From: Picochlorum sp. SENEW3 | Lineage: Eukaryota | Direction of reading: 5' to 3' | DNA: 64,000 nt | NCBI GenBank assembly: GCA_034226945.1 | Contig: CP120458.1 | Coordinates: forward strand, 62,001 to 126,000 | Shown here: positions 2,513 to 55,461 of the stretch, in pieces | Layout of the letters: each line of letters begins with the position of its first letter | Numbering within the stretch: position 1 is the first letter of the stretch | Made by a program: the position numbers and the translations under genes | Notes under the pieces: model-generated | What the model was told of the DNA's origin: nothing | The model's input: the letters and a program-made list of their open reading frames with translations, nothing else | Databases searched by the model: none

Positions 2513-2519
2513 ATCTACG

Positions 2520-15708: not shown

Positions 15709-15976
15709 TGTAAGAGCGTGCACTGAACGTCCTGAGACTAATGATTAGGTTCGGTCGGCTGACGGTCCACACCGTAGTAGAGACTGCACTATGTTGGTAT
15801 CCTGGTAACACAGGCCTTGATTATAATGTGTTACACGATGGTATATGTAGTAGAATGGTAGATAATCTTATGAGTCCTCGAGTATAGACTCTGGTTCATG
15901 GTTATATTGTGTAATCTTCTTGGTAGATTGATTCCTTAATAAGAGAGTGCCTTGAGGCATCATCTGTGCTGTTACA
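15709..15976 (-). repeat. Gypsy-1 3' LTR
   Basis: Identical to 20936..21203. Confidence 0.97.
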
Positions 15977-15988
15977 GTTCTCCCCCAT

Positions 15989-20802: not shown

Positions 20803-20935
20803 GTCAATTATTGCTGAGGTCTTGATGCAAAGAGGAGCTACCGCACTGTCCCAGTCCGCGTCACGTCAATACCGTGAGATCTCGATTCCTCACGCCAAAT
20901 CCACGGGATTTATACGAAATAGAGCTGAAACCACT

Positions 20936-21203
20936 TGTAAGAGCGTGCACTGAACGTCCTGAGACTAATGATTAGGTTCGGTCGGCTGACGGTCCACACC
21001 GTAGTAGAGACTGCACTATGTTGGTATCCTGGTAACACAGGCCTTGATTATAATGTGTTACACGATGGTATATGTAGTAGAATGGTAGATAATCTTATGA
21101 GTCCTCGAGTATAGACTCTGGTTCATGGTTATATTGTGTAATCTTCTTGGTAGATTGATTCCTTAATAAGAGAGTGCCTTGAGGCATCATCTGTGCTGTT
21201 ACA
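20936..21203 (-). repeat. Gypsy-1 5' LTR
   Basis: Identical to 15709..15976. Confidence 0.97.
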
Positions 21204-24400: not shown

Positions 24401-27400
24401 CTCCGTTGTCTGTAGAGCCTTGCCTAAGGGCCCAGAGATGGTGAAAGCTCTGCGGAAAGCCACTGTGCGTCATCTTCGGCAAAACCGTGACAAATATCAA
24501 GAAGGATTCGTGAAAGACAAGCAGTTGCTGAACATGGTGAGAGACAAGGCTTTCAAAAAATTGGACTTGAAAAAACTCAGTGAATCAGTCTTATCACACC
24601 TTGAAGGCCACGTGGATTGGGTTGTTAATGACTGCTTCTTGCAGGCGTTACTGGACGTCTTGACTCAAACTTTGAAACAGACATGCAAAATACGCATCTA
24701 CAACATGTGTTGCGCAGAAAAGCATGAGAAGCCATTCCAGGAGATTGTCATGGAGTCGAGTGGTTCTGGCAGTGTCATCACTTTTCCAGTGTTGTATTGC
24801 GGCGACCAGCGCTACGCTGCAGCAAAACCACCCAGTCCACCTGAAGGGAGATATTACTTGTCGCAAAGTGCTCAAGGAATTCAACCAAAGCCTATCGATG
24901 AGACAGATGCCATGTCTGACTTGGTTGCCGACCTGCTTTTAGGGTGTGCTGAATGTAAAGGTCAGTACCACATGCCAGAGAAGTGTCCCATCCATCTGCT
25001 GAGAGAGCACGGCCTCGAGGAGGCTCAGGAGCAGGGAAGCGGGTCCTGTGCCTTGACAGCAATTGGATACCATCTCAGGTGCGTTTTGTTTTGCCACTGC
25101 GTGTCAGATTCAGCGTGTAAGATGCCGTTGAAGGTTTGTTTAAATCATACCACATCAAAACACAAGAGGTCATGTTATCCCACCTTCCCCATGCAGGATG
25201 ATGTCAGTCTCCGTTGTCTGTAGAGCCTTGCCTAAGGGCCCAGAGATGGTGAAAGCTCTGCGGAAAGCCACTGTGCGTCATCTTCGGCAAAACCGTGACA
25301 AATATCAAGAAGGATTCGTGAAAGACAAGCAGTTGCTGAACATGGTGAGAGACAAGGCTTTCAAAAAATTGGACTTGGAAAAACTCAGTGAATCAGTCTT
25401 ATCACACCTTGAAGGCCACGTGGATTGGGTTGTTAATGACTGCTTCTTGCAGGCGTTACTGGACGTCTTGACTCAAACTTTGAAACAGACATGCAAAATA
25501 CGCATCTACAACATGTGTTGCGCAGAAAAGCATGAGAAGCCATTCCAGGAGATTGTCATGGAGTCGAGTGGTTCTGGCAGTGTCATCACTTTTCCAGTGT
25601 TGTATTGCGGCGACCAGCGCTACGCTGCAGCAAAACCACCCAGTCCACCTGAAGGGAGATATTACTTGTCGCAAAGTGCTCAAGGAATTCAACCAAAGCC
25701 TATCGATGAGACAGATGCCATGTCTGACTTGGTTGCCGACCTGCTTTTAGGGTGTGCTGAATGTAAAGGTCAGTACCACATGCCAGAGAAGTGTCCCATC
25801 CATCTGCTGAGAGAGCACGGCCTCGAGGAGGCTCAGGAGCAGGGAAGCGGGTCCTGTGCCTTGACAGCAATTGGATACCATCTCAGGTGCGTTTTGTTTT
25901 GCCACTGCGTGTCAGATTCAGCGTGTAAGATGCCGTTGAAGGTTTGTTTAAATCATACCACATCAAAACACAAGAGGTCATGTTATCCCACCTTCCCCGT
26001 GCAGGATGATGTCAGTCTCCGTTGTCTGTAGAGCCTTGCCTAAGGGCCCAGAGATGGTGAAAGCTCTGCGGAAAGCCACTGTGCGTCATCTTCGGCAAAA
26101 CCGTGACAAATATCAAGAAGGATTCGTGAAAGACAAGCAGTTGCTGAACATGGTGAGAGACAAGGCTTTCAAAAAATTGGACTTGAAAAAACTCAGTGAA
26201 TCAGTCTTATCACACCTTGAAGGCCACGTGGATTGGGTTGTTAATGACTGCTTCTTGCAGGCGTTACTGGACGTCTTGACTCAAACTTTGAAACAGACAT
26301 GCAAAATACGCATCTACAACATGTGTTGCGCAGAAAAGCATGAGAAGCCATTCCAGGAGATTGTCATGGAGTCGAGTGGTTCTGGCAGTGTCATCACTTT
26401 TCCAGTGTTGTATTGCGGCGACCAGCGCTACGCTGCAGCAAAACCACCCAGTCCACCTGAAGGGAGATATTACTTGTCGCAAAGTGCTCAAGGAATTCAA
26501 CCAAAGCCTATCGATGAGACAGATGCCATGTCTGACTTGGTTGCCGACCTGCTTTTAGGGTGTGCTGAATGTAAAGGTCAGTACCACATGCCAGAGAAGT
26601 GTCCCATCCATCTGCTGAGAGAGCACGGCCTCGAGGAGGCTCAGGAGCAGGGAAGCGGGTCCTGTGCCTTGACAGCAATTGGATACCATCTCAGGTGCGT
26701 TTTGTTTTGCCACTGCGTGTGAGATTCAGCGTGTAAGATGCCGTTGAAGGTTTGTTTAAATCATACCACATCAAAACACAAGAGGTCATCTAATCATGGC
26801 CACGTCTGGGGTTTGTAGACGGTATAGAGTACCTGTAATGGTTCACCCTATGGTGTGAACATCCTTAAGAACTTATTACAGTATCAATGTTACCATCTGT
26901 GTTACTTTTTGCAGGAGAATGGTCAGAGATGAACCTGTTGTCGATCAATGGCTGAAAAACCTACAAGGTCTGAACCTGGATTCCATGATTGGCAAACTTT
27001 CAGAATTATTTGAAGTCGTGCATATGAAAATTTTCACCAGGCATTACATCTTGCAATCAAGCGGAGAGCCTGCTTATGCGGACGCATTGCCGATAAAGTC
27101 TGTACCAGAGAACCCTGTCATGGCTGCAGGACAAAATAATTGGATTTGTCTTCCACTAGTCAGTCGCAACTTCCAGTATTCACCTTGTAAGGTGGTAGAT
27201 AACAAGTCATTCACACAATCATTCTATTATTCACTGTCCCATGGTGAAGACAATTTCCTTAAGGGTAAACTCATAGCTGTTGAGGCATCCAAGGATTTTC
27301 AATCTGCCATCCTGAACATGATGCAGAAGACGCTTCCACAGAAGTGCCAAATTTGTTTATTACCAAAGGAATCTGACCACAGTAGCGATGTTTGCTGGCA

Positions 27401-33031: not shown

Positions 33032-33142
33032 GGCGAATCTTAAAAACGATTATATGATAGTAATCACCGATAATATTTATCTGTCGCAATGCTTTGTAGC
33101 GTACGGAGATTTTACGCGGGATTCGAAATTTGAACTCCCTAT

Positions 33143-33300
33143 CCGGGAGGCCCTCATTTGGGCCGATTTTGGCTTTTGGGGAAATGAGGGATTCCCGGCT
33201 GTAGCTGGGAGGCCCTCATTTGGGGGGCTCAAAATGGCCGATTTTGGAGGGTCCAAATCCGGGCCTGCGAGATCTATCTGGGAGGCCCGGATCGTATGTC
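33143..33300. repeat. 158-bp transposon terminus, copy 2
   Basis: Same length as and highly similar to 2355..2512; abuts the Gypsy-2 LTR. Confidence 0.75.
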
Positions 33301-33528
33301 TGTTAGCTATTCATTTGCAATAGCTTGAGCTCAGACTGCTTGGGCAGGAACTCAATGATATAGGTTCAGAACACGTGTGTGCGTTCTATCACTTTAGATG
33401 TTAGTACAAGTTACAATAGTTACTTGCTTATATATCTTCGTTGACTGTTATTGTCGTCGCAATGCTTATATACCTTGGCAACCATCATGAGTAAATGGCT
33501 GTTCTAATTTAGATGATTTAAGACGTAA

Positions 33529-34313
33529 GGGCGGATCAACTCGATTGTGGGTTTTCTATTAGTGACTTCCAAAAAATCCTATGGGGGAGCGGGGCGTCTT
33601 TTAATAATTGATAATTTGATAAAGGTGCCAATCTGGCATCCAATCGCCTCTTAAAACCTCTGAATCAATGCGTATGCATATCCTAGTGCACAAACATAAC
33701 AAACATGGTCGCTTGGCTGATCCTGTGTGGAGGAATCTTGCCTGGATCACTGTCCATAACATGTCCTCTGTACGAGCCTTGTGCCCCAAAGCCCCGGCGA
33801 ATTTTGCGAGGTTCATCATCCCCAAATACTCTCATGATACATCAAGATAGACAGCATCTGCATTTGGCATTCGATTTCTCGCCAGATACGAGAGAGATGT
33901 CGACACAGTGCAAAATTCAAGCATCCTCTGACCATGTCCTTTCCATTCAATGTGATTTCAGCTGTTTCCTTCGCCTCAAACCCAATTTGTTGGTTCAATA
34001 TCTCAAAAAGGCGTCCAATATGTTTTATGCTTGGAATATCCTTGGAAATGGACCCACTTCGGGTTGTCTCTGTGACAGATCTGAAGCTGAGGTGCAGATC
34101 CAGGCTCTGCCGTATTCTATCATTATTGAGGCTTGCCCCGGGTACCTAATGACATTTGTCGGCGTGTAGGATGTTTGAATGCATCGCAAGGGTTGGTTAA
34201 AGCCCACGTAGAGTGGATTTGGCTCAAATTATCACTTTACAAAATCAGGTCCAATTCTGAGAAAATCCTATGGGCGGGGCTAATAGAAAACCCACAATCG
34301 AGTTGATCCGCCC
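33529..34313. mobile_element. PIF/Harbinger (Tourist-like) non-autonomous element, 785 bp
   Basis: Perfect 34-bp TIR GGGCGGATCAACTCGATTGTGGGTTTTCTATTAG; TAA TSD (33526..33528, 34314..34316); removing it restores the LTR end AGACGTAACA. Confidence 0.93.
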
Positions 34314-34497
34314 TAACATTCTTCCCTAACTTCAAATGCAAACGTCCACGCTTTGCTAAAGACAATGAGAAGTGACAATCCACAGGAAAAGAAAACCTTG
34401 TTGGAAAAAGAAGACCATATGGATGTCTGGAATGAATTTTTAATTGCTGTGCATTCTTCCTATGCAACAGAGAATGATGTCCACACTCATTCAAAAC

Positions 34498-36438
34498 AAA
34501 AACATTCTCGCGGGCCCCTTTTTTTGACGTGAGTCTCATGACACTTCAATCGACATAGGGATGTTTGGATGGAAAGGGCGGATGAACCGCCCTTTCAGTT
34601 GGCCAGGTTTGTCCAAGCCCCATGCGCTGGGAACATGCATGTACTGTAACATTCCTGTGGTGAGACTGAAACCTTGTATGGTCCTTTGTATGGATTTCCA
34701 AGCGTTCTGGGTTTCTTTGACAACCGTCCTAATTCACAGGATCCTAGAAATTCCTTTGCACTACAGCAGTATAGACTGATCACTGTATCAACTGGCATTG
34801 CATAAATGCAGTTGTCGACACACCCACAATCTTCATTTGCGACTTGCCATGGCCTGCTATCGATACAAATCTCCCAAATCCGTGTATCGGCTGAGCAGAC
34901 CTGCGTTTCCATTCTTGGACTCACATCCCCCATTTGCAAAATATCTCTCAAGTAGGAGGGAAAAGCTACCTATGTTACTGCTTTCATATTCGATATCCTC
35001 TCGTACATGCGCTGCATCCACATTGATTCTGTCTAAAATCAGAATACACGCGAATCTCGATGGCATGCTTGATCCTCATAATCAAATGTCACAGTTCGAG
35101 AGAACCACATTAATTCTATTGCTACGAGGTTTGGATTGTTGCCCCCGTGCCAATAATGAGCAGCTATATCGGCCATCAATCCTCTCATTCACAACTTCAT
35201 ATACATATGAGTCTGTGGCTAAGGCATCGCGCATCATGGCCACAGCAGCACCTCACTGAGAGCCATAAGAAAGCAATATGGTGACATGCAAGCATTTTAG
35301 CGGACAGCAGAAACGAGCTTGCTATGGACCGACAGAAGTCCGAAGGACGTATACTCTGGTGATCAACAAGTGCATGATACGGCTGCGATATATTCGTACC
35401 ACAGGAATTGAAGGAGATACTGACGCCCTGACCTTCATGGGGATTTGACTGGCGTAGATGGCCTCATGACCATCAGCACTTGCAAATAATCCGCGGAAAA
35501 TCGTACTGCTCACGGACATTACTTGTCACAACTGTACATATGTTTCCATGATGCTTGGTATTGAAGTGTTGGCTGCTTGTTTTGTGGCGTAGTCGTCACT
35601 GTTCCATCTGACATATGACTTGGCTGCATAAGCATTACAGGTAGCATCTGATTTGGCCTTTATGACATTTCCACATGGAAGTGTCAGGATAAATGACATT
35701 CAGGAGCAAATATGCACCAAAACATAGCAGATTGCTGTAGATTATGCTTCCACCCGGGCGATGGAACCTGGGGCAGTTAGCCTTGAGCAGTAACAGCCTT
35801 GGCCCAAACTCAGGTGTCATGAATCGACGAATTTCGCCTATGACCATGCCAATTTGACCGGACGGTTGGACACTCTATCTATGAATAAGAGCATCCCATC
35901 ACAGGCTGATGTTGACCGGGAACATTACAATTCGCGTGTAGCACGATATGCTTCCCTTAGCTGCCCTCTGATACGCGTCAGGCATCGACAGAGAATCCAG
36001 CAATCCATTTCTTCTTGACTATCAAAGCACTATAGATCAATTAAAAGCCAATACCCTGGCACAGAGAGCAACCAGAGGTGCGCACGGACATTCGACAGTT
36101 AATGGTTGGGCACATTTGGTCGCTTTGCGGCGGCGTCTAGCCACCCGGGCTTGCCATCCACCCCTATAATGTGCATCTTACTCTTTTCTATTTAATGCAC
36201 TGTCCCAAGGGTACTCGGTTGACACGTATGAAAAGTGGCACGCTTTTTTTCCCGATTTTTTCACGAATTCGTCGCTCGCGAACGCCACGTCACAAGGCAC
36301 TTCTTGGCTTCTCTGGTCCAGTCTTATAATGTATTAATAGTCAGTTTTATGTGCACAGTGTAATTTATCCTGCTGCAGGGAAGCGGGAATCGCGTTTGTG
36401 GTTACATCTATATAAAGTTATTCCCCCCTGTAGGCCCG
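34498..36438. repeat. ~1.9-kb dispersed repeat, copy 2, inside Gypsy-2
   Basis: Colinear with 3512..5445. Confidence 0.85.
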
Positions 36439-36840
36439 AATAGATAAAAACTTCAACTGGAGAATACCTGTAAAGGATGGATAACAAGGGAGAGAGATGA
36501 GCCATTGACCAACAAAAGAAGGCGTCCCCTCTGATGTGACAAGGCAACCAATCATCCAAAATCATGACAGAAAAGAAAAGTGAACGGGGCCAGCGTTCAT
36601 ATGTTAGTGTCGACACAGAGAGATAGTTGCAACAGAGATCAGAAAGAAGACTCAATTCGAGTTTCAGATGCATTTAATAGTAGTACTCAACAAAGGAGCA
36701 TGATCTCAGAATAATAATAAGAAGCGCTTTCTTTTTTTTCGGAGTTCAGAAACTAACTCGATTTAATGACGTCTTAGAGAACTGTAGTCTCTTGAAGTTG
36801 TTGCATTCTTATGCGTTGATGAATAAAAGATTCCATGAAC

Positions 36841-39800
36841 TCAGGTCACTGGAATTCTAGTCGCTTGTCTTTTCGACGGATCACGGGGTACAACTTGTCT
36901 TGATTGATGTTGCTCATTTTGTTTTTCCCAACGTGATTTCTTATTTGAATCGTTCGATTTTCTTGACAGAGAACGTTTCTTGCGACGGACAACTTCTTTA
37001 TGAGGAACCTCTTTACCTTGATGATCTTGATCTTTATGGCGATCACTCGAGTTCATCTCACCTGTTTTGAGCACAGACTTGGGTCTGGCATCAATGCTCG
37101 CTTTAGCAGCAAATAATTTCTGGACTTGTTCATTGAAAAAGTCCGCACCAGCATGAAGCAAAATCAAATTTTCGGTGCATTGCATGGTCGTACCATCAGT
37201 AAGACGAACCGTATACCAGTCTTGTTGTTTGACCTGGCGATGAGCAACAATGGCTTGCATTTCAAAGCACTTTGGGGCTTTATCAGTATTATACCTGCGA
37301 AACCATTTGATATGTAACACTGGTCGAGCACGACGCATTGTCTGGATCAACTCCAAGTCTAATTTGGATTTAGGAGTGCCAGAATCACACAAATCAGTCC
37401 AAAATATGAGAGCTGTGTTTGGCGAAAGCATACGCTGAATAGTAAAAGGACCAATGAAACGTGGAATGAGCTTTGGCAACTTAATTGCAGATCCCAGATG
37501 CAAATATTTCACATTCAAAAGAACACGATCACCTGGCTTAAAGTTGTGCTTTTGGAATTTTCGTTGACCCGACACAATCTTTGTCATTTGATAATGGTCT
37601 AAAGCCTCTCTGGCTTGTATCTGTGCTGCTTGAATGTTCTGTAATCGAGTCAGCACACCTGTATTATGAGGATCAAGAAGTAATTGGCGCTCAAATTCCA
37701 TAGGAAAGACTAATTCACGACCATGATTCAGAAAGAATGGGGAATGCTTCGTTCCTGTATTCACCGACGAATTCAACGCAAATTCAATCATAGTGAGCTT
37801 ATCAGCCCAATTTTGCGCATGACGAGTATCATTATCGGAAGGATGCATAAGACAGCGCAATTTATTTAGGATGAGCCTATTATATCGTTCCACTTGACCA
37901 TTTCCTGCTGGATGATATGACGTTGTACGGCTCACTTGGATTTGGAAACACACATTCAGGCGAGCAGAAAAGTCATTCACGAATTCACTACCTCTATCCG
38001 AAATGAAACGATGCGATATCCCAAAACGCTTGAAAACATGATGAAAATACAGGTCAGCAATCTTGGCACCAGTTAACCCTTTCTTGGAGGTAGCGACAAC
38101 GACCACGAATTTGGTCAGACTGTCAACAAACACAACAATACAATCCACTATCTCCACATGACCAGAAACCGACAGTTCGACAGCTGGAAAACCTGAACAA
38201 ACGTCCATATGCACTGTATGAAAGGGATGTGGAGGTACTGGCAAAGCCTGAGCATTATTAAACGGCTTCTGAGTACTGTCCTTGGCACACTGGCACACAT
38301 GACAACGCGAGACAAACAAATGACACTCATGAAGATGATGCTTCCAATAAAAATGACGACTTAATCTGGCTTTTGTTTCCTGGTGTGCTCCATGAACACA
38401 CTGCTCATGAAACTGGCGAAGAATATTCTGTCTGAGAGCATCAGTCTGTGGGCAATTAGGAATGATGGTGACCTCACGACCTCGATATTCGCCTCTCAGC
38501 AGTCCATTTTCCAATCGACAACTTCTGGGGTCGATTTTACGACACAGACGACTACATGTGCTGTAAGGTGCTCGTTGAGGTTCAAGCACACAACGCAACA
38601 AAACAGATGTCCAGGGATCTTCCGAGTACGACTTCCGAATCGTATCACACATAAACTGAATTGGATCAGCCAGCTCGTTGGGCTGTTCCGACACTGCGAG
38701 CAAATGATGAGGCTCGACATCTGAGGAGGGTAGAGTCTGTGCCTGATGCACCCCATTCGGCAATCTGGATAAAGGATCAGCGACCTTGTTCTTGGCACCT
38801 GGCAAATGACGAATAATTAATTGCCCATCTCGATACTGAGATAGCACTTGCAGGTAGCCAACTTCTCTTCGGCCCTTGAGAAGTTCTCGTTGTGTGAGCA
38901 TACGAGCGGCTGCGGCGTTATCTGTTTCGACAATGACCTGAGGGGATTGTGTAAGGAATTTGGCCCACTGTTTGAGACAATACACAATAGCTAAAGTCTC
39001 CTTCTCACAAATACCATATCTCGCTTCTGTATCAGTGAACTTGTGGGACAAATACTCTATGGGCTGCCAGCCTCTACCTGTGGGATTCTGCATCAAAACA
39101 GCAACGAGGGCTAAATCACTGGCATCACATTGAATCAAAAACGGCTGAGTGGGCTCTGGCACAGCGAGAACAGGCGGACTGGTAATCAGCTTCTTCAATG
39201 TTTCAAAGGCTATTTGAGCTTGTGCAGACCACACCAGCGTTTTACCTTTCAGCAGCTCGGAGAGAGTGGCGGCAATCTTTGCATAGCCTTGGCAAAACCG
39301 TCGATAAAAGTTTGTGAGACCCAAAACTGAAAGTAATTGAGATAGGTTCTCTGGAGGCTTCAATTGCTGGATGGCTTGCACCTTCTGAGGGGTAACTTCT
39401 ATTCCATCGGCAGAAATAACATGTCCAAGCCATTCCAAACGCTCAAAGAAAAAGAAACACTTGCTCGAATTCAAATAGAACTGATACTGACGGAGACGGT
39501 CGAACAGAATTCGTAAAAGTTCAAGATGGCGTGGGACACAGTCAGTACCTATGAACATGTCATCCATATAGAAGAACACTTCACCGGTGGCAAGCAGATC
39601 CCCTAAAATCGAGGCCAAACGCCTAGAGAAATGACCTGGTGCTACTCGAAGTCCAAATGGTAGCACTTTAAACATGAACCGACCTATCGGCGTGATGAAA
39701 GATGACAGTTCCATAGACTGACGATCTTGCAATCGGAGTTGCCAATACCCACTGGCACAGTCAAGCGAGCTGAGAACCTTGCGATGGCGAATCTTGCTGA

Positions 39801-40857
39801 GGAGATATTGAATAGGTGGCAAATCCGAAGCTTGATCCACGATGAGCTTATTAATCGCACGATAATCAACTACCATGCGCATGGAGCCATCCTTCTTCTT
39901 GACAAACAAAACATGGCTCCCAAAAGCAGATGTACTAGGTACAATGAATCCTTCTTTCAACAGCTCGTCAACTTTTTGTCTAAGAAAAGCCTCCTCTTCT
40001 GCTGTAGGCCATTTAAAGTATGTTTTAGGCGGTTGAGCGCCTTCTTTCAAAGACAATTTCACATCAAAACCTGGTCTTCGCGGCGGCAATGGCGGTAAAC
40101 CCTGAACAAAGATATCTTGATTGCTATGCAAGAAATTCGTTAGTCTCGTATCATTCAAACCGACATGAAATTGTGATTTGGGAGAAGAATCAGGCAATTC
40201 AACATTCCCAACAAAGGGGTATGGAGGACCCTGATAATTCAATGTGCAGCAATATTCGACTTGGTCTGCGTTATTGTGCCACAGATCAACCAGCTCGTCT
40301 TCTTCCATGACCATGGCGCAAAGCGTCAAGCGACGTGATGTGGCATCAGGCGAAGGCAAAGATACGGAGGAAGTACTAGAAACTGTTAATGTAGCAATAC
40401 CTTCTGGCAGCGGTATGTGGATGCCTTGACTATCCCAGCGGCCATTACGCTTCAATATCGATTCTAGCCAACCAAAAGGAAGTATTATATCATAAGGACC
40501 TGTAGGATGAATGTAAAAATACGTAGCTTGCGTGATTCTGTTGGATTGGCCATTGATCAGCACATCATAATGCAATGTCAAGTCACAGGCTTTGGTGATG
40601 CTGGGTCCAAAATCTTTTGTAACTGTGGACAACTGAATCGGTGAGATTTGCTGCAAAGGAAAGCCATACTTAGTAACAAAATCAGCCGACATCAATGGAT
40701 ATGGTGTCGTGCACCCTGAATCAATAAGGACTTGTGCAGGATGTCCCTCACAAAACGCAATAAAAGTGGATGCTCGTGGCGAGTGCGACATGGAATGCAA
40801 ACATATTGGAAGGATTTCAGCGGACTGGCCCGTGTCTGTTTCAGAACAGCCCCTCAC
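36841..40857 (-). CDS. pol: Gypsy-2 Pol (PR, RT, RNase H, integrase, chromodomain-like tail)
   Basis: LIDSGCT, YMDD, CDASD, HEQCVH..CHVC, SDRG, GQVER, RFIGPF, AIVAHR..WYTVR. Confidence 0.95.
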   Translation of the reverse strand: MRGCSETDTGQSAEILPICLHSMSHSPRASTFIAFCEGHPAQVLIDSGCTTPYPLMSADFVTKYGFPLQQISPIQLSTVTKDFGPSITKACDLTLHYDVLINGQSNRITQATYFYIHPTGPYDIILPFGWLESILKRNGRWDSQGIHIPLPEGIATLTVSSTSSVSLPSPDATSRRLTLCAMVMEEDELVDLWHNNADQVEYCCTLNYQGPPYPFVGNVELPDSSPKSQFHVGLNDTRLTNFLHSNQDIFVQGLPPLPPRRPGFDVKLSLKEGAQPPKTYFKWPTAEEEAFLRQKVDELLKEGFIVPSTSAFGSHVLFVKKKDGSMRMVVDYRAINKLIVDQASDLPPIQYLLSKIRHRKVLSSLDCASGYWQLRLQDRQSMELSSFITPIGRFMFKVLPFGLRVAPGHFSRRLASILGDLLATGEVFFYMDDMFIGTDCVPRHLELLRILFDRLRQYQFYLNSSKCFFFFERLEWLGHVISADGIEVTPQKVQAIQQLKPPENLSQLLSVLGLTNFYRRFCQGYAKIAATLSELLKGKTLVWSAQAQIAFETLKKLITSPPVLAVPEPTQPFLIQCDASDLALVAVLMQNPTGRGWQPIEYLSHKFTDTEARYGICEKETLAIVYCLKQWAKFLTQSPQVIVETDNAAAARMLTQRELLKGRREVGYLQVLSQYRDGQLIIRHLPGAKNKVADPLSRLPNGVHQAQTLPSSDVEPHHLLAVSEQPNELADPIQFMCDTIRKSYSEDPWTSVLLRCVLEPQRAPYSTCSRLCRKIDPRSCRLENGLLRGEYRGREVTIIPNCPQTDALRQNILRQFHEQCVHGAHQETKARLSRHFYWKHHLHECHLFVSRCHVCQCAKDSTQKPFNNAQALPVPPHPFHTVHMDVCSGFPAVELSVSGHVEIVDCIVVFVDSLTKFVVVVATSKKGLTGAKIADLYFHHVFKRFGISHRFISDRGSEFVNDFSARLNVCFQIQVSRTTSYHPAGNGQVERYNRLILNKLRCLMHPSDNDTRHAQNWADKLTMIEFALNSSVNTGTKHSPFFLNHGRELVFPMEFERQLLLDPHNTGVLTRLQNIQAAQIQAREALDHYQMTKIVSGQRKFQKHNFKPGDRVLLNVKYLHLGSAIKLPKLIPRFIGPFTIQRMLSPNTALIFWTDLCDSGTPKSKLDLELIQTMRRARPVLHIKWFRRYNTDKAPKCFEMQAIVAHRQVKQQDWYTVRLTDGTTMQCTENLILLHAGADFFNEQVQKLFAAKASIDARPKSVLKTGEMNSSDRHKDQDHQGKEVPHKEVVRRKKRSLSRKSNDSNKKSRWEKQNEQHQSRQVVPRDPSKRQATRIPVT

Positions 40858-42167
40858 TGAAAATTTTGATAATAGCCTTGTACTGGTTGTTGTAGTACCT
40901 GTTGTCCTTGTACTGGCATAGGCATCAGTGGCGCAACCTGGTTGACAAAGTGCTGCGGATTCCCATAGCCACCTTGAGGCGCAACGTGTTGCGGCGGTGT
41001 ACCAAAAGAGTTCTGATAATTATTACCGCGATTCCCGAAATTGCGAGATGGGTGACCACCCCCACCTCGGCCATATCGTCTGTTGGGACCTCGATCTTGG
41101 CCAGGACCTGGATTGCGGCCCCCTCTGTGTCTGAAAGCAGGAATACCATAGGAATGCTCCTGATCCCAGCCCCCAGATCTGGCAGGCTTATGCCTCCAAG
41201 GACCACCCTTGTTCGGCTGTTTCGGAACACGAGTAGAATTATAACCTGGCGTCGTCCTCTGGTTCGGTGCTTTAGACTGGCCTTGGTATCGCCTTGCTTT
41301 CCCCTTTCCTAGGGGCGAAACTTGTGCAACAGCAAAACACGGATCAGGTGCCGTATTGGGCTCAAACCCAGTGGCATACGTCTTGTTTTTGATCACCTCA
41401 GCACGACGCTCCAATTCTGCAAAAATATCCTCGATATCCGGAGAGCTTGGGTATCCCTGGGCTTCCAAATATGCCCGCAGATAAGATCGAGCATACGGGT
41501 TCAATTTCGACAGAAGATCTGTGACCAAGATCCGATCAAGAGAAAGGTCAGGGAACACAGCTGTAAACACATCCCGGTAACCAGCCAGGAAGAGCACCAT
41601 GTCCTCGTCATCCGCCTGCTTCATATCAGCCATCTTGACCATGAGACGTCCTTGATAACCATGACCATTCAAGAATTCCATCAGCTTGCGGGCTGTCTCG
41701 CCCCAGGCATCCCAATCTTCGTTGCCTGAGTTGGCCTCCTGGGCGTCTTTGAACCAAGTCAAGACGCGGTCCGCATGCACGAACGCTTTTGCTTGTTGCA
41801 ACATGTGAACGAAGTCTTCACAACTCACAGGAAGAGCCTGAGACCATCGAATGCTCCGACGAGTCCACAAAGCAGCGCCCAAAGGATCCGTTTTGGGATC
41901 TGGAGGCAGATCTGGAAGCCCTTTTCCCAGCTTGGACCTCTCAATGGGGCTGCACGAGCGGATCGGCGGCACCGAGACATTTTGGACATGCCCCGAATTA
42001 TCTTGGACCTCTCCATTGGCTTGCGGCGGCGAGACCGGCGGCGGCTGGCCACGGTTTTCCTCTGCCCCTGGAGGTGCCATACGACCTCCTGTCACCTCCC
42101 GGCGACGCGGGTTGGACAAATTGCTTTGATTACTTCTGGTATTAGCCATAGTACCAATAAAACGCAC
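40854..42167 (-). CDS. gag: Gypsy-2 Gag
   Basis: 437-aa ORF directly upstream of pol; MKQADDEDMVLFL gag-like motif; RGG/Gln-rich tail. Confidence 0.85.
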   Translation of the reverse strand: MRFIGTMANTRSNQSNLSNPRRREVTGGRMAPPGAEENRGQPPPVSPPQANGEVQDNSGHVQNVSVPPIRSCSPIERSKLGKGLPDLPPDPKTDPLGAALWTRRSIRWSQALPVSCEDFVHMLQQAKAFVHADRVLTWFKDAQEANSGNEDWDAWGETARKLMEFLNGHGYQGRLMVKMADMKQADDEDMVLFLAGYRDVFTAVFPDLSLDRILVTDLLSKLNPYARSYLRAYLEAQGYPSSPDIEDIFAELERRAEVIKNKTYATGFEPNTAPDPCFAVAQVSPLGKGKARRYQGQSKAPNQRTTPGYNSTRVPKQPNKGGPWRHKPARSGGWDQEHSYGIPAFRHRGGRNPGPGQDRGPNRRYGRGGGGHPSRNFGNRGNNYQNSFGTPPQHVAPQGGYGNPQHFVNQVAPLMPMPVQGQQVLQQPVQGYYQNFQ

Positions 42168-42326
42168 TGTGTTTTGGTATGATCACCAAATGTTAGCTGT
42201 TGATTTGCAATAGCTTGAGCTCAGACTGCTTGGGCAGGAACTCAATGATATATAGGTTCAGAACACGTGTGTGCGTTCTATCACTTTAGATGTTAGTACA
42301 AGTTACAATAGTTACTTGCTTATATA

Positions 42327-42926
42327 ATTAATTAGTGTGGGTTACAGCACCAGCCTGGGAGTTCCCGCTCAATGGAGGGACTAGATCGACCGATCGAATC
42401 CGTCCATTGGGGGCCCTGCTCCAGACATCATTGGCAATAGAAGGAATGAAGATAAAACTATAAGAACAACCAAAAAGGGCAAAATTTCGACTCAAATCAA
42501 CTCGAGATACAACTCCACCTGTGATTAACCCACTGACACAGGGAGGAGAAGAGTGTCGCAGCAACTCTAGCAGGTAAAACTGTCATAAACGACCTTGATC
42601 CAGAGCACTGTAAGAGCACACATTTCCAGCGAGGAGTATCCATTCAAAGAAAGCAGATGCATCACATGTTCATAATATTGAGATAGATGACCAATGTAAG
42701 AGAGTGTAATGGAAGACAGTCCAATAGAATGTTCCTGAAACATACAAATGCAAGATAGAAGAGCACTGTCATATTCTCCCGGAGCCCTGCTCTTGTGGTG
42801 TCCAACACCGGGAGGTTTGAAAACGAAGCAATCACCAGACCAGCCACTAGGATTGCTTATGTATGATAAATGTCACATAATCTGCTGGTTACACGGGTTC
42901 ACCCAAAACCCGGCAGAAAAAAAAAA
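42327..42926 (+). mobile_element. ~600-bp poly(A)-tailed insertion in the Gypsy-2 5' LTR (probable retroposed SINE/LINE fragment)
   Basis: Absent from the other LTR; ends in A10 (42917..42926); flanked by duplicated TATATA. Confidence 0.65.
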
Positions 42927-43047
42927 TATATATATCTTCGTTGACTGTTATTGTCGTCGTAATGCTTATATACCTTGGCAACCATCATGAGTAAATGGCT
43001 GTTCTAATTTAGATGATTTAAGACGTAACAGATCCTACTGGGGCTCC

Positions 43048-44451
43048 TTATTCCTCTTGTATTTCAATTCGACTCTCGTTAGAAGAGCAGTAAGCGATAA
43101 TCTTTTCCTTCACATCTTGCCAGCTGTGCAAGTTCGACTTGGGAGAGTCAGCACCAGGCTTCCAGTATATAATCCAGACGTCTTCTCTGTCAGCATAATT
43201 CTTTGAGCCACCATTTTGTTTCCTAGTACTTTGCTTGAATCTCCTGTAGGTGTTGAATGTCCTCTTTCCACCTGGGACAGCATAGAACAAAATATGTTCA
43301 TGACCAAATTCTGGAACATCCTTTCTTACAACCTTTTTGGGGCATTTTGTCTTCCAGATTATGTGGTTGATCTCCTCGAACCCTCGCTCTTGGAATTCTC
43401 GAAGGCATGTCAACACTTGGCTAGGAGGAATACAGAGAAAAATGCTGCCACCATCGATGACCTGTTCCCTGGCCGAGTCAAACCAACATCCCTTCGGAGC
43501 CACCGACGTCCTGCATACCAACAGTTCAACCCCGTCTTTATTAGATCTTGGCACCCATCTTTCTAAAGGTCTGAAAGCCTTCTTTGCCTCCGGATCCCCG
43601 CAATTAGGATCCAAGTTTTCCTTTGATAGTTGGGGCCTTCCATGTTTCTCTTTCCTTGGAGCACTCTGTTTGCAATACTGATGCATCTTCATTTGCTTGC
43701 CTTTCTTTGACTCGTCAAGATACAAACTGTATCCAAACTTAAAGGCATTTTGGTTGATTTCAAACCCACATGACCTGCGCCCCATCTCTCTTGCAACCCG
43801 TGCCGTAAGAGAGCTGCCCAGGAAAAAGTCACACACCATATCACCAGGCGCTGATCCAATGCCAATCATACGCTCCAGGAGCTTTCTCGGTAACTGGTTC
43901 TTGTTCTTCACTTGTCCTGGCTGGTACTCCCGTTGGATCTCCCAGACGTCTCCAAATTCTTTCAATTGCTCTGAAACTTTCCATGCAGGTTCATCTACCC
44001 CAGGCTTCTCATAAAATAGAATATGGTAGTGAGAGGAGACAAACTTTTGTGTGGTCCACACCCCAAAGTTGTACTTCCAAATTATGTGGCTGACCTCCTG
44101 TAGGCCATGCTTTTCCAAGGCCTCCAGCACATCTGCGAGCCGAGAATAGCCGCTCACGATAAATATCCTTCCCCCTGGTCTAAGGACCCGAGCAGCTTGC
44201 TTGACCCATTCTTCCGTAAAGCAGCCATAGTCATCGGCATCAACCTCGACATACCCCTCAACGACGTTGCCCTCGTTCCTGTTATAATGCTTGTGCAGCG
44301 ATTCTCCTTGGATGCCATATGGAGGATCTGTAACTATAAGGTCAATTGAATTGTCGTCGAGCTGATCCTTTGCGCCAATGCGGCAGTCCACGTTGAAGAA
44401 CGTCTCGCCTCTCTGACTTGGGGGAATTGCACGTGAGCGTTTTCGGTTCAT
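43048..44451 (-). CDS. Bacterial-type beta-class DNA N6-adenine/N4-cytosine methyltransferase with a degenerate duplicated C-terminal domain
   Basis: IDLIVTDPPY, RVLRPGG, HIIWKY, HYHILFYEK, DVWEI, CDFFLGS, GFEIN, with DPPY preceding the SAM motif. The second half repeats GGSIF/NHIIWK/HEHILFY/EDVWII. Intronless. Confidence 0.9.
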   Translation of the reverse strand: MNRKRSRAIPPSQRGETFFNVDCRIGAKDQLDDNSIDLIVTDPPYGIQGESLHKHYNRNEGNVVEGYVEVDADDYGCFTEEWVKQAARVLRPGGRIFIVSGYSRLADVLEALEKHGLQEVSHIIWKYNFGVWTTQKFVSSHYHILFYEKPGVDEPAWKVSEQLKEFGDVWEIQREYQPGQVKNKNQLPRKLLERMIGIGSAPGDMVCDFFLGSSLTARVAREMGRRSCGFEINQNAFKFGYSLYLDESKKGKQMKMHQYCKQSAPRKEKHGRPQLSKENLDPNCGDPEAKKAFRPLERWVPRSNKDGVELLVCRTSVAPKGCWFDSAREQVIDGGSIFLCIPPSQVLTCLREFQERGFEEINHIIWKTKCPKKVVRKDVPEFGHEHILFYAVPGGKRTFNTYRRFKQSTRKQNGGSKNYADREDVWIIYWKPGADSPKSNLHSWQDVKEKIIAYCSSNESRIEIQEE

Positions 44452-44853
44452 GGTCGACAAGATCTTACTAAGCAAAAGAATAAAACTTTCATGTATTTAT
44501 AATATTCCCAGCACTCAAGCGACACCATATATGATTGAGAACCAAAGATTGCCGGGCTGGGAAATTGCCGTTGTTAACGTAACACGGGGATTTAAATTCC
44601 AGCAATCTCATGATATGGTGTCGGTAGATTGTGCTGTTCGAAGGGAGTCACAAATTGTTCGCTGTAACAAAGAATCATCTGTCCAAGACGTGTCCCGACC
44701 GAACCTGGGGAGAGTGGAATTCACACAAGTATATGGGAGGTTCGCTGCGTCCCACATACCCATCGTCACTCTATTCACTCATCGTGATTCCATATATTCA
44801 ATATTAATAACCCAAAATAGTAGTTCGTTCATTGTTGTAAATCAATCTCAAAG

Positions 44854-46200
<1,347 letters not shown>

Positions 46201-46420
46201 ATTTGATGGGGTGTTTGCTTGCATGTCTCTTGCATATACATGAGTGCTTGCATGAAGATATTTTTTGTGTACATCAACATGTAACAAAAAGACTTTTACA
46301 AGACGAGATGGTGGCTGAAACATTGTTGATTAAGACATTATTCATTGGAAATCATTTGCGACAGATAGCCTATGATTATTGGTCACAAACAGGGTCCATA
46401 CCTGTCTGGAGTTTCAGTTC

Positions 46421-50341: not shown

Positions 50342-53300
50342 ATGGCATTGGTGGTGTTGCTGCTTACTCTTCTCTTGGTGGTTGTGGATGCATCATCAGG
50401 ATCCAAGGGAGTGGTTGTGGATCTGCAGGCTTCATGGGGATCTACATCACTGCTGCACGAGGCTGCAGAGTTTCTGGTAGGTGATGTACTTGGTATTATT
50501 GTCTTGCACCCTGAAGCATTCTTTGGCTTTGAGAATTCATCCGAGTGTCTAGATATGAATTAATGGTACATATGCATATGCAGGGCGATGGCTCAGGGGC
50601 GGATGGATTCTTCGACGTGGTTCGAGAGTGGAGGAGGAGGACAAGTGCTGCTCACCAGCGAGGAACATCATCTTGCTCCGGTGCAGGTGATACACTGGAT
50701 GGTGCTTGCTGCTCTTCTATGCTGCAAGAATTTCTCGGTGACATACTTTCTCATGGTCAGATGTATCGCATGAGCATGGTGGCCCTTGCCTCCAGGCAGT
50801 ATTCTCCCAGACTGGAGACCTTTCGGCAGTTGTCAGAGGGGTGGTTTGGTCCAGACAAGGCATGCTGCTGGGTGGTCGTGAATGGGAAAACTGCAATTAC
50901 AACTGTGGATGAACTAGAAAAGAGTATTGATCTTGCATTGGAACATGGCGGTGAGACAAAGGAAAAGGTTCTGGACATTGATCATGTATTCAGCAGAAAG
51001 GATGGCAAGGCTACTGTGACGTTGTACGGCCCGCTGGATTCAGTGTGTTCTCACAAGATGCATGATTATATTGTGGATACTATTCTTGGCAAGAAACGTG
51101 GAAACGTATCGTACCTGTGGAGGCCTATTCCATACAGTGGTGTTGCTTGCCAAGACGAGTTTTCATGCAGTCAGCTGGGAACGGACAAAAACATGTCCAT
51201 TCCTGGATACGGGGTGGATTTAGCGATCAAAAATATGGAGTACAATGCGAGAGATTCCTCCGAAGAAAAGGACTCCTCGGGTGCTTTGGACTCTTCACAG
51301 TCCACACCTGGGTTTGACACTCAAACGTTGGTTGAGAGGTATCCCAAACATAGGATGGAACTGGAATCATTCGCGTCCCATCTGAGCAAATCATCGTCAC
51401 AGAAAGAAAGCAGTGGTATAAAAGTGTGGGATTTGAACGATATTGGAATCCAGACTGTGGAAAAGGTGTTCAATGCCAAAGATGGGCTCTCTGTGCTTCG
51501 GGATGTCGCACAGAATTTTCCCAGCCTGGTTGAGATGATATCCAAGGTGCCCGTATCCAAAGATACAAGAAGACAGATAAAATCACTATCATCATATTTA
51601 AGCCCAGATGCAGAGGCATTATTTGTGAACGGATTGTCAATTTCTTTGGGTGATTTGAACTGGCATGCAATACTGGATGTGCTCCGCAGTGAATCTGAGT
51701 TTCTGCTCAAGCTGCACTCATTAGGCATCGCATCTGGAAACATCCCAGAAATTATGAAGTTGCGAAATGGACACGGGGGCCAGGAGGACGAAGGACGAGG
51801 AGAAAGTTTCCGATTGGACTTTCAGCCAGAGAATCATGTCTTCTGGATGAGCAACGTCGAAGAGGACGAATCCTTCGAAGGTTTACCATCACGATTGAGC
51901 AATTTACTACAGCCTGCATTTATGGGGCAAGTTCCAGCAGTGAGGAGGAATATTTTTACCGCATTTTTCGTGGTGGATGTGGGCAGCAGGGGTGGTGCCA
52001 TGTCACTCTTGACTGCAAAAGGCCTTCTAGACCAAGGCCTTCCTGTAAGAATTGGCATTATTCCGGTGGGACACAAGGAAAATGTGGAGAATACGTCTCG
52101 GGATCTTACAAATATATTCACGGCTCTAGGATTGAATATGGGAGGTCGCCAAGCATGCAGCCTGTTTGCTGCTTCGGCAGCAGCTATGACGCAGAAAGGT
52201 TGGGATATGGAAGACAATTACCCAGAAGCGATGTATAACGCTCTTATGAAGCAGTTAAAGCCAAAGTGGAAGAATATGTCGGATAAATTTGACGGTATTG
52301 CGCCAAAAGCCTTTGCAGGCTTCCTGAGAGAATCCAAGAATGCCGTAGCAGAATCTGTGGCATCCTTCTTGAAAGAAGCGAGCGCGCAAGTCAAGGGGCT
52401 TGGAATCCAAGATTTCCCTGAGGCAGGGGGCATTATGATCTTTAATGGGGCCCTGCATCATGTTGATTCGGCTCCAATGTGGCGCCCCGTGTTGATCAAT
52501 GCCTGGCAGGCTGAAGTTGCTTCAATTCAACGGCTCATCTATGAGAATCGGTTATCTGATTCGTCTAAGGATTTATTAGGAGACATACTTTTGATACATG
52601 GCGCTATTCCTCGATTCAATTCGAGGATATTATCAAAGCCCTCATTGCTAGGAGATGGGGAGGCAGACAATAGTCCTCAGAGAGCTATTGACTTTGCCAA
52701 TGTGTCAAGCACCTTGGATCTCATTGAGAGTATGGAGCTAGCCTATTTCAGCCAAATGGCTCTCGTGAATGACAAGATTCAGAACTTCCCGATAACGCAC
52801 TGGGTCATTGTGAATCCATCATCTGATGCTGGGCGAGCGCTGATGTCTGAAGCCCTATCACACGAGTTTGCTGATTCCAGAATAGGTGTCGTGGTCAATC
52901 TGGAGGACCCATCTTGCTCGAATGACACAGTTTCAGAACTTGATGCTTTCTTGCTAGGGTTATCCCTCGGTCCTCCAGAGAAAGCCTCCGAAGCAGATTA
53001 CTTTGACATGTTGGCCTCGATATCTTCGGCATCAGCTGCGAATCTTGCGAATGGTAGATTGCCTGGTATAATTCCAGAAGAGGTTTTCCCAAACCCGGAA
53101 AGTCTCAAGAACTTTTTGAGGGACGTAAGAGGATCAAAATATCTTGAAAAACATTGTCGATTCGTCAGAGACCATTTGGGCCTGCCCAAGGGCATTTCTG
53201 GTGTCCTAACCAATGGCAGATTTTTGGAACAAAGGTTTGCTGGGGATATTGTCGCAAAAGACTTTAGAATTCTTGATCAGGTTGCAGAGACCAAATTTTT

Positions 53301-55461
53301 CGCGACCAGAAAGCTATTGAATATCTTGAAATCGACATTGCCTGCAGATGGTAGACTCAACACTATTGCTGCTCTGTCATCGAGTGTCATCATGGCCCAT
53401 ACATCTGGAAAGGTGCGTTTGTATGTGTATCAAGGTCTCCGATGATTTGAGACTAAAAAATCTTGTGTGTGTTGTCATACAGGATGCATCACAGTCATCC
53501 CAAGTGCTGGAGCTGTTTGATAGGACGGCTGACAACATCAAGGTTGTTGAGAGGTCACTATTCGAATTCGATACTGCTCCATTGCAGGTGCAGGCAATCT
53601 TTGATCCACTCAGCAAGGTATCTCAGCAAATATCTCCAATTCTCGTGTATTTGAAAGAATCCCTGCATGCGAATATTGAAGTCATTTTGCACCCGAAACA
53701 AGGCTACTCAGATTTGCCTCTGAAGAATTATTACAGATATGTCATGCCCAGTACTCACAGTATCAGCTCAGACAATTCTCCCAAGGCCATATTTTCGTCG
53801 TTACCCCTCCATGATACTTTGACGCTAGGCATGGATGTCCCAGAAATGTGGTTGGTCAGTCCTGTGCACTGCAAGCATGATTTGGACAATATTCAGTTGG
53901 CCAGTCTCCCAGCAACAGAAAAGAACCTTGTTGCTACTTTTAAATTAGATTCAATCCTCGTAACAGGGATGTGTGTGGATTTTTCTGCGTTAGAAAGTGG
54001 TAGAAATGCTCAGATACATCCACGAGGAGTTCAACTGACTCTTGGAACGCCTGACAAGCCTGCAAAGTCTGACACCCTGGTGATGAGTAATCTGGGCTAT
54101 TTTCAACTAAAAGCAAGCCCAGGTATCTGGGACTTGCGTCTGGCTCCAGGGAGATCAGAAGAAATATACAACATCAAAAAAGTAACAGGAAGATCTGAAT
54201 TCTCTCTGATGACAAGCTCAGCGGCCATGAGGGATAATGCAGCAATCATACCAGTGGCATCCTTTTCTGGAGAGCATCTACTGCTTCTGCTACGCCCAAA
54301 CAAGGGACACGACGGAGAAGATGTCCTAGATGTCAAGGGTAGTCCCTCAGTGTCTGCAGGAAATCAAGATGATAGAATACACGTTTTCACCGTGGCTTCC
54401 GGTCATATGTACGAGCGATTGCAGAAAATAATGATACTGTCAGCCATCAAGAGATCCAGCAGGCGAATCAAATTTTGGTTCATTGAAAACTACATGAGCC
54501 CTCAAATGAAGGATTTTGTACCACACATGGCTCGCCAGTATGGCTTTGATTACGAGTGCGTTTCTTTAATGTTCGAATCATCTTTTCTGGTGTATGTATA
54601 TGATACATATTAGATGGTGGATAGCGAGTGATGATGATCCGTAAGCACCACCTCACATTGTATTCCCATGTATGCAGGTTTGTGACATATAAATGGCCAT
54701 CATGGCTCCACAAGCAGTCTGAGAAACAGCGCATCATATGGGCCTACAAAATCTTATTCTTAGACGTCTTGTTTCCGCTTGGACTGAAAAAAGTCATCTT
54801 TTGTGACTCTGATCAAGTGATCAGGACAGATTTGGCAGAGCTCTGGGACTACAACCTCCATGGAGCTCCCTATGGATATACGCCGTTCTGCGACAATAAC
54901 AAGGACATGGATGGCTTTAGATTCTGGAAGCAAGGATTCTGGGAAAATCATCTTCAGGGAAAGGCATACCACATCTCAGCTCTCTATGTCGTCGACTTGG
55001 AGAGATTCAGGTCCATGGCAGCAGGCGATCAATTGCGAGTCATCTATGACCAGCTCTCCAAGGACCCCAACTCGCTATCAAACCTGGACCAGGACCTTCC
55101 AAACTTTGCCCAGCATCAAGTGCCCATCGCCAGCCTCCCTCAAGAGTGGCTGTGGTGTGAAACATGGTGTGGCAATGCAACTAGAACAAGAGCCAAGACA
55201 ATTGATCTCTGCAACAACCCATTAACCAAAGAACCAAAACTTCAGAGTGCCAGGCGCATCATCGCAGAGTGGCCAGATCTCAATAGAGAAGCTGAAGAGT
55301 TCACAGCGAGAGTAGATGCATATCTCGACGGAGCAATGACAGAAGAAGAGCTCTCTTCGTCTGACAGCAGTCGATTCATGGTCAATCTCAAGCCCATGGT
55401 TGAAGGATCTTTCCCAATCAAAAACGAGGCCCATCCGAGAATAGATCATTCTGAATTATAA
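50342..55461 (+). CDS. UGGT: UDP-glucose:glycoprotein glucosyltransferase (4 exons)
   Basis: Signal peptide; [64 protein letters not shown]-retention-like HSEL. Confidence 0.95.

Follow-up and report, generated by a model that had tools for sequence, protein, structure and literature searches.

What is a gene that reads like a bacterial DNA methyltransferase doing beside a housekeeping gene in the genome of a microalga, and how did it come to be there? The question is raised by a 64,000-nucleotide stretch of Picochlorum sp. SENEW3 DNA (assembly GCA_034226945.1, contig CP120458.1, positions 62,001 to 126,000 of the forward strand; hereafter the window), in which an open reading frame (ORF) for a 467-residue methyltransferase lies between a long terminal repeat (LTR) of a Gypsy retrotransposon and the gene encoding GAPDH. 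Here we describe the sequence, predicted structure, relatives and surroundings of this protein. The explanation that we favor, with a probability of roughly 0.6, is that this is a resident nuclear Picochlorum gene encoding an orphan, most likely N6-adenine-specific, single-chain pseudo-dimeric beta-class DNA methyltransferase, which was gained, already fused, by horizontal transfer.

The N-terminal half: a complete catalytic module

The coding sequence (43048..44451 including the stop codon; P0001), which like all of its parts given below lies on the minus strand, is an uninterrupted frame of 467 codons from the first ATG (protein start MNRKRSR), and is intronless in an otherwise intron-bearing genome. 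Its only Pfam domain is PF01555 (N6_N4_Mtase), matched over residues 36-237 with 146.3 bits (cut-off 26.7, E 1.7e-42). Pfam and family alignments delimit an N half (residues 17-248; 43708..44403) that forms a complete catalytic module. Catalytic motif IV, DPPY (residues 42-45; 44317..44328), is invariant in 19/19 aligned proteins of the same two-copy layout and precedes motif I, FLGSS (residues 210-214; 43810..43824), which would belong to the binding site of the cofactor S-adenosylmethionine (SAM), with the target-recognition-domain position between the two. This is the beta-class order, and motif IV before motif I is also described for M.BceJIV (PMC11380664). All residues that are invariant across the 19 two-copy proteins are retained in the algal protein, including D42-P43-P44-Y45 and D208/F210/G212/S213. 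By its motifs, the protein is a beta-class DPPY amino-methyltransferase.

A first-pass annotation of the window had described an intronless beta-class DPPY enzyme with a basic N-terminus, and both descriptions stand; the basic patch is NRKRSR (residues 2-7; 44431..44448), a putative nuclear localization signal. The same annotation had taken FLGSS for a departure from FxGSG, and here the family corrects it. Where FxGxG is expected for SAM motif I, F-L-G-S-F is the rule throughout the family, in the prokaryotic single-copy relatives and the sister alga as well. This subfamily has thus lost the last glycine, and the F-L-G-S-S of the algal protein is no aberration in that respect.

The nearest solved structures by sequence are those of the N6-adenine enzymes M.BceJIV (8urk), CcrM (6pbd), M.RsrI and M.MboIIA, followed by the bdelloid rotifer enzyme N4CMT (8s9m). 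An AlphaFold2 model built with 19 relatives (mean predicted local confidence, pLDDT, 78.4; predicted template modeling score, pTM, 0.80; low confidence at residues 1-7, 52-55 and 251-298) gave Foldseek matches to CcrM (6pbd, E 5e-16), M.BceJIV (8urk, E 1e-15), RsrI, MboIIA, PvuII and rotifer N4CMT (8s9m).

The C-terminal half: a second copy without catalytic motifs

The catalytic module is followed by a linker of 48 residues (251-298; 43558..43701), predicted to be disordered (pLDDT < 50) and represented in two-copy relatives by low-complexity segments of variable length, and then by a second, degenerate methyltransferase copy (C half, residues 303-467; 43051..43545). The relationship is evident from internal BLAST, which aligns residues 82-151 with residues ~335-406 (35% identity, E 6e-11), from the family alignment, in which the C half spans the whole fold and the chain ends before pseudo-motif I, from the trees discussed below, and from the Atlas structural model, in which residues 304-467 align to PF01555 proteins with a TM score of 0.73. 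The family alignment places 'GVELLVCRTSVAP' on 'SIDLIVTDPPYG', 'GFEEINHIIWK' on 'GLQEVSHIIWK', 'HEHILFY' on 'HYHILFY', and 'HSWQDVKEKIIAYCSSNE' on 'NQLPRKLLERMIGIGSAPG'.

The C half lacks DPPY, whose aligned position in the family alignment is occupied by 'RTSV' (residues 314-317; 43501..43512), as well as the 30-residue post-DPPY loop, 'KFVSSHYH' and motif I. It has 'RTFNTY...NYADREDVW' (residues 397-426; 43174..43263), a segment that the alignments, comparison with M.BceJIV (PMC11380664) and the complex prediction described below assign to the target-recognition-domain position and to the predicted interface. The single-copy relatives and the C half share this segment, which is lost from the N half, where residues 148-166 form a shortened stretch at the position at which relatives have 'RTFNT..NYxDREDVW'. 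On this comparison the C half is a catalytically dead second methyltransferase copy, in agreement with the first-pass annotation, which had recognized a C-terminal copy devoid of DPPY and the SAM motif. Tandem homologous modules, one of them without catalytic and cofactor motifs, are the arrangement of a single-chain pseudo-dimer, a design resembling that of PRMT7.

Predicted packing of the two halves

Dimerization defines the beta class, and the EcoP15I and CcrM dimers split labor between their subunits; in EcoP15I one subunit recognizes the DNA and the other methylates it (PMC11380664). Prediction of residues 1-250 and 300-467 as two separate chains gave a score of 0.80 (best of three controls, 0.39), which shows likeness to such dimers and not binding, because the model may remember the solved beta-class homodimers, and this tempers the favored explanation. 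Among solved complexes 51 of 78 attain the mark applied to such predictions, and among mismatched pairs 2 of 108. Contacts agreed by at least 74% between runs, the partner pLDDT was at least 73, and the pTM of 0.80 for the single chain was reached despite the 48-residue disordered linker.

The predicted interface is pseudo-symmetric, with helix 105-114 and strands 118-141 of the N half facing helix 343-355 and strands 359-389 of the C half, and C-half residues 397-402 and 419-425 touching the invariant residues 136-141. In M.BceJIV the dimer interface consists of a helix and strands beta4-beta6 (PMC11380664), the same helix and strand elements as in the predicted algal interface. The halves are thus predicted to pack like a beta-class homodimer, and the single-chain pseudo-dimer proposed in the first-pass annotation is recovered in the models. 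In its sequence the architecture is an unusual one, a rare fused two-copy version of the beta-class design, and the fusion probably lets one chain do the work of a two-subunit enzyme.

A resident and conserved gene

In sequencing run X1, a single Logan contig (30,894 nt) covers 43002-46300 at a uniform depth of 63 and joins the edge of the LTR to the methyltransferase and GAPDH; because X1 may be the source sample, the contig does not count as independent evidence. In the same run the LTR has a depth of 300-617 versus 63 for the methyltransferase, consistent with a single-copy gene. The sister alga, Picre1, which we take to stand for a Picochlorum species, supplies independent evidence in the form of a 136-residue model (jgi/Picre1/32506) that is identical to the methyltransferase at 103/111 positions (93%) over residues 103-213, and that is numbered directly after the GAPDH model (32505). 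The first-pass annotation had asked whether reads link the gene to GAPDH and whether synteny with GAPDH holds in relatives; the X1 contig provides the link, and the synteny is seen as an adjacency in model numbering. The two Picre1 models (P0127/32505 and P0303/32506) look faulty, the GAPDH model missing 25 internal residues and the methyltransferase model having unrelated ends, which probably explains why the gene went unnoticed.

Contigs from marine and gut metagenomes (X5, X6) cover the methyltransferase at ~88-94% nucleotide identity. Among the displayed differences to these contigs, 19/31 fall at third codon positions (p 0.0013), and 18/29 changed codons are synonymous (synonymous to non-synonymous, 7:2 in the N half and 11:9 in the C half). 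The composition of the gene is host-like, with a GC content of 47.2%, a third-position GC content of 51.6% and a correlation of relative synonymous codon usage with neighboring genes of r 0.70. Taken at the level of sequence, this is a real, conserved, resident algal gene.

Several observations count against the favored explanation. The estimate of selection comes from 31 displayed differences, with 242 more across 42900-46300 not included in it, and the nearly even 11 synonymous and 9 non-synonymous changes in the C half imply weaker constraint there. The algal C half is ~25 residues shorter than that of most relatives and ends ahead of pseudo-motif I, and motif I has GSS at the place of GSF in the sister species and the family (F214 to S). 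The Gypsy element lies 17 bp past the stop codon and must therefore have replaced the original 3' untranslated region. The adjacency in Picre1 is drawn from consecutive model numbers and not from coordinates. Among the listed sequencing runs containing the stretch, none is on record as RNA, so these are uninformative on expression; run X19, guessed to be RNA, is probably DNA, and its coverage is confined to GAPDH. The methyltransferase has no MMETSP peptide among the matches listed, where fragments below ~95 residues would not appear. On the side of origin, the sole long contig with a two-copy relative (L163, described below) has mixed gene content, and one two-copy protein is labeled as coming from a Planctomycetia metagenome-assembled genome (MAG), on a 3.6-kb contig; from its carriers, the two-copy clade looks associated with eukaryotes or eukaryotic viruses.

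The shortened C-half tail, the F214 substitution, the LTR in place of the 3' flank, the lack of an RNA run among those listed and a sister annotation that models 136 residues only would all be expected of a decaying or neutral relic, that is, an inactive enzyme or a silent gene. This is the strongest of the competing explanations, and we consider it unlikely: the 467-codon frame is intact and the family-invariant residues are all kept, synonymous changes outnumber non-synonymous ones and third positions are over-represented relative to the metagenomic relatives, the sister species is 93% identical over 111 residues, and the gene persists in the marine and gut relatives.

Target base and orphan status

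DPPY is the N6-adenine form and SPPY the N4-cytosine form of the catalytic motif, according to the rotifer N4CMT study (PMC8885841). The algal catalytic motif is DPPY and no N4-cytosine-type SPPY/SPPF motif is present; on this ground adenine N6 is most likely favored over cytosine N4 as the target base. The first-pass annotation had proposed a horizontally acquired writer of N6-methyladenine (6mA) or N4-methylcytosine (4mC); horizontal transfer is retained here and 6mA is favored by DPPY, with 4mC less favored, and a direct bacterial donor is not retained, as discussed below. That the enzyme instead acts on cytosine N4, on RNA or on protein is a weaker alternative still, with rather little probability. 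PF01555 does span both N6-adenine and N4-cytosine enzymes, the rotifer N4CMT (8s9m) is among the fold matches, and target specificity is not readable from sequence alone. The motif, the closest solved relatives by sequence (M.BceJIV and CcrM, both N6-adenine enzymes) and the prokaryotic relatives, which occur in restriction-modification-like cassettes, a kind of system that acts on DNA, speak for DNA adenine.

These prokaryotic relatives comprise hundreds of ~320-residue proteins annotated as 'site-specific DNA-methyltransferase (adenine-specific)', from Methanomicrobiales, Bacteroidota and Alphaproteobacteria MAGs among others, which cover the N half only, at 52-58% identity. They resemble the algal N half, read FLGSF in motif I, and have the 'RTFNT..NYxDREDVW' segment seen in the algal C half. 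They differ in being single-copy, in having a putative nuclease partner in 22/80 loci, and in that a basic N-terminal extension occurs in 1/100 of them.

The partner is a conserved ORF of ~215 residues directly upstream of the methyltransferase (for example L001 7303-7968 and L006 7347-7991), which contains a D...DxK-like stretch. Its versions in an alphaproteobacterial MAG and a Bacteroidota MAG share 60% identity, and neither Pfam nor the PDB gave a match. It is probably the nuclease of a mobile type-II cassette, representing an undescribed family of type-II restriction endonucleases. The ~215-residue partner is absent from the window (tblastn) and from all two-copy loci. The algal gene has GAPDH and the Gypsy LTR as neighbors, and no cognate nuclease of a type II restriction-modification system stands beside it; by gene content, then, the algal enzyme is an orphan methyltransferase.

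In Methanoculleus (L033 9093-10037, L067 9122-10045) the single-copy relative is followed by a D12-class adenine methyltransferase, a pairing reminiscent of DpnII-type two-methylase systems.

The two-copy clade and the origin of the fusion

In a protein search, ~17 proteins cover 91-99% of the query at 37-50% identity, and 22 other proteins in all have the same two-copy layout (41-52% identity). A profile of 19 two-copy proteins gave 39,847 matches among 1.84 billion representatives, the best 150 of which hold 14 full-length two-copy clusters and 2 fragments. Among the fetched loci, drawn from prokaryotic genomes, viral contigs and metagenomes, 5/259 are two-copy (4 distinct), with one further truncated locus, and the best 80 of the 416 prokaryotic genome matches are all single-copy.

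When 81 catalytic modules are placed in one tree, all 23 N halves group together (Shimodaira-Hasegawa-like approximate likelihood-ratio support, 99) beside a clade of 37 prokaryotic single-copy enzymes, and the algal protein groups with P0002, P0003/P0005 and the P0008 group (support 86). A second tree that includes C halves (66 rows) recovers the N-half clade (98) and separates the 23 C halves from the rest by a branch (92), the C halves having longer branches and subclades that mirror those of the N halves. Both trees come from a quick search, with long rows flagged. Their topology points to one ancient duplication followed by co-divergence, and not to a duplication in the alga.

This bears on a simpler scenario, in which a bacterial single-copy methyltransferase was acquired directly and was duplicated inside the alga. 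It would account for the 52-58% identity of the N half to ~320-residue prokaryotic enzymes and for the sister position of the prokaryotic single-copy clade. It is contradicted by the trees, in which N halves (99) and C halves (92) group separately with matching subclades, and by the 22 other proteins with the same layout and the uniformly single-copy state of the best 80 of 416 prokaryotic genome matches; we regard it as very improbable. The BLAST and tree comparisons suggested in the first-pass annotation, which had inferred a horizontally acquired gene of bacterial type, leave a bacterium as an unlikely direct donor, the two-copy proteins forming a clade of their own.

The carriers of two-copy genes offer some indications of where the clade resides. 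A basic patch in the N-terminal extension occurs in 10/23 two-copy proteins versus 1/100 single-copy relatives, and poly-N, poly-Q or poly-S linkers occur in three two-copy proteins. At one two-copy locus (L162) a neighboring product resembles eukaryotic leucine-rich-repeat proteins of the RanGAP/RNI type (Atlas feature score 0.95, a lead only), and at another (L230) the gene lies near a weak HECT match. A third (L163) is on a 211.6-kb IMG/VR contig whose genes include those for an RNA ligase, an RRM protein, MORN repeats, DUF5857 and PIF1; PHROGs searches with the neighboring genes gave nucleotide-metabolism matches only, and the contig could be either a giant virus or a jumbo phage. A search for the capsid family PF04451 covered 3/5 records, L163 not among them, with a control that matched nowhere, and so says nothing for or against a giant virus. 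The two-copy protein on the L163 contig (P0007; L163 8765-10477) has an extra N-terminal YAcAr/SLOG (DprA-like) domain.

The history that we propose for the fused gene begins with the methyltransferase of a homodimeric restriction-modification system, which would have been duplicated in tandem, after which each copy would have lost what a dimer needs just once. The N copy would have retained catalysis and cofactor binding (DPPY and the SAM motif), and the C copy the interface and 'RTFNT..NYxDREDVW', supplying the second 'subunit' of beta-class enzymes, so that the fusion would hard-wire the labor split seen in the EcoP15I Mod and CcrM dimers. The two-copy clade would thus descend from type-II restriction-modification methyltransferases and now occupy eukaryote-like or eukaryotic-virus-like contexts. 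The fused gene would have spread among eukaryote-associated genomes, reached the alga already fused and become fixed beside GAPDH, and the basic N-terminus might direct the protein to the nucleus. As to what the mark would do for the host, we can only speculate that it protects host DNA from virus-encoded restriction enzymes, or that it is a regulatory mark.

A bolder proposal, which we put forward tentatively and hold to be rather unlikely, is that the two-copy proteins constitute an undescribed family of single-chain, hard-wired asymmetric N6-adenine DNA methyltransferases borne by eukaryotes and eukaryotic viruses, and that Picochlorum has domesticated one of them to write 6mA at specific motifs in the nucleus, separately from the MT-A70/AMT1 ApT system. 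A possible use of such a writer would be a 'self' mark against virus-encoded restriction enzymes of the chlorovirus kind.

Comparison with known systems

The algal protein shares PF01555, motif order, DPPY and fold with the beta-class homodimers (M.BceJIV 8URK, CcrM 6PBD, M.RsrI, M.MboIIA and EcoP15I Mod). It differs from them in having both 'subunits' in one chain, in being encoded by a nuclear gene and in its basic N-terminal extension, and each of its halves is incomplete by their standard, the C half being without DPPY, post-DPPY loop and motif I and the N half without 'RTFNT..NYxDREDVW'. It is thus a natural experiment, in which an obligate beta-class homodimer has become one chain and the parts lost from either half are retained in its partner, and the labor split inferred from the EcoP15I and CcrM structures becomes testable in a single polypeptide.

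The combination of an active module with an inactive paralogous module in one chain, mimicking a homodimer, is known from PRMT7, whose inactive C-terminal module is required for its activity (PMC10908127). The same logic, an active module paired with an inactive paralog, applies to METTL3-METTL14 and DNMT3A-DNMT3L. These proteins belong to unrelated families (protein arginine, RNA and cytosine-C5 methyltransferases, respectively), and the likeness is one of design and not of ancestry.

To our knowledge, very few prokaryote-type amino-methyltransferases have been fixed in eukaryotic nuclei. The rotifer N4CMT (8S9M) is a horizontally acquired PF01555 enzyme fixed in a eukaryotic nuclear genome, and its description states that no other sequenced eukaryote has the gene (PMC8885841). 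Its motif is SPPY, it has introns and one catalytic module, and it writes 4mC (PMC8885841), in contrast to the DPPY motif, intronless gene and dead second module of the algal protein. No account of the algal gene or of a fused beta-class DNA methyltransferase was found in the literature, in a search that did not cover subscription papers and supplements. The Picochlorum gene would be a second independent case of such fixation, this one of the adenine (DPPY) type and in an industrial microalga that is amenable to genetic work. If active, the enzyme predicts a sequence-specific 6mA motif in Picochlorum DNA, which methylome studies focused on ApT or CpG would have missed.

The genomic neighborhood

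The methyltransferase gene and GAPDH (44854..46200, plus strand) are divergent and are separated by 402 bp (44452..44853), which may serve as a bidirectional promoter. GAPDH starts with an ATG at 44854 and has three exons (44854-44880, ~44976-45002 and 45178-46200) with two short 5' introns, a structure confirmed by an MMETSP transcript. The product is 99% identical to an MMETSP peptide and matches EukProt jgi/Picre1/32505 at all but 3 aligned residues, the next named matches after Picre1 being to Micractinium, Chlorella and Coccomyxa; by these matches the host is a trebouxiophyte green alga. On the other side, 17 bp (43031..43047) separate the methyltransferase stop codon from the 5' LTR (42191..43030, minus strand) of a minus-strand Gypsy element (Gypsy-2, 33301-43030). 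The divergent arrangement with GAPDH and the 17-bp distance to the Gypsy-2 LTR are as given in the first-pass annotation.

Could the methyltransferase be cargo of the adjacent retrotransposon? The screen behind the DAM-carrying retrotransposons, a set of LTR-associated elements, was reportedly built on a Pfam family other than PF01555. Such elements, which carry prokaryote-type adenine methyltransferases, do exist in chlorophytes, with the enzyme inside the element (10.64898/2026.05.21.726589), and the algal gene lies 17 bp from an LTR on the same strand. A transposon-borne methyltransferase would be situated within the element and multiply with it, whereas the algal gene is outside the LTR pair (33301-43030), is single-copy at a depth of 63 beside an LTR at 300-617, has no counterpart in the other element copy (2351-5076), and is numbered next to GAPDH in the sister annotation; cargo of this kind is accordingly a highly improbable origin. 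Contamination or a chimeric assembly joining a foreign methyltransferase to algal DNA, which a bacterial-looking intronless gene in a eukaryotic window might bring to mind, has a negligible chance in view of the uniform-depth contig (although it may come from the same sample), the sister ortholog numbered beside GAPDH and the host-like composition.

Truncation of the methyltransferase by the Gypsy insertion was considered and rejected, the stop codon lying upstream of the LTR and the X6 relative aligning up to 43050. A target-site duplication of Gypsy-2 was not found, the flanks ATGTC (33296-33300) and GATCC (43031-43035) being different. The right LTR has ~600 bases (42327-42928) that are missing from the left LTR, and the 162 bases that flank the element on its left side (33139-33300) are found again at 2351-2512, next to another element copy. 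Together these features suggest nested insertion, recombination or a 31-kb segmental duplication.

Gypsy-2 is part of a 43-kb transposon-rich block (1-43030), which ends exactly at the methyltransferase in a genome that is otherwise compact. Besides two Gypsy elements, the block contains another, partial copy, an ORF resembling a KDZ transposase and long ORFs without annotation. The centromeres of green algae have been described as stretches of tens of kb rich in transposons (PMC12633428), and by analogy the block could be a centromere-like region. Beyond it, 43031-64000 holds housekeeping genes, including those for a TKL kinase, eIF2-beta, UDP-glucose:glycoprotein glucosyltransferase (UGGT), an ACAD10-like and a CemA-like protein (Pfam). 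Viral genes around the methyltransferase, as expected of an endogenous giant-virus element, were not found by Pfam searches with 21 long ORFs of the window, which gave retrotransposon and housekeeping families only and do not account for the unannotated ORFs of the transposon block.

Within the block, the Gypsy element at 15709-21203 is bounded by two 268-bp LTRs (15709-15976 and 20936-21203) with 100% identity to each other, has its gag and pol ORFs intact, and looks like a very recent insertion. At 24133-26856 an 808-bp unit is repeated four times in tandem (79-95% identical), each unit with an ORF of 238-277 residues without a Pfam match. On the housekeeping side, the UGGT gene (50545-55461) occupies three neighboring ORFs, a sign of introns or frame changes.

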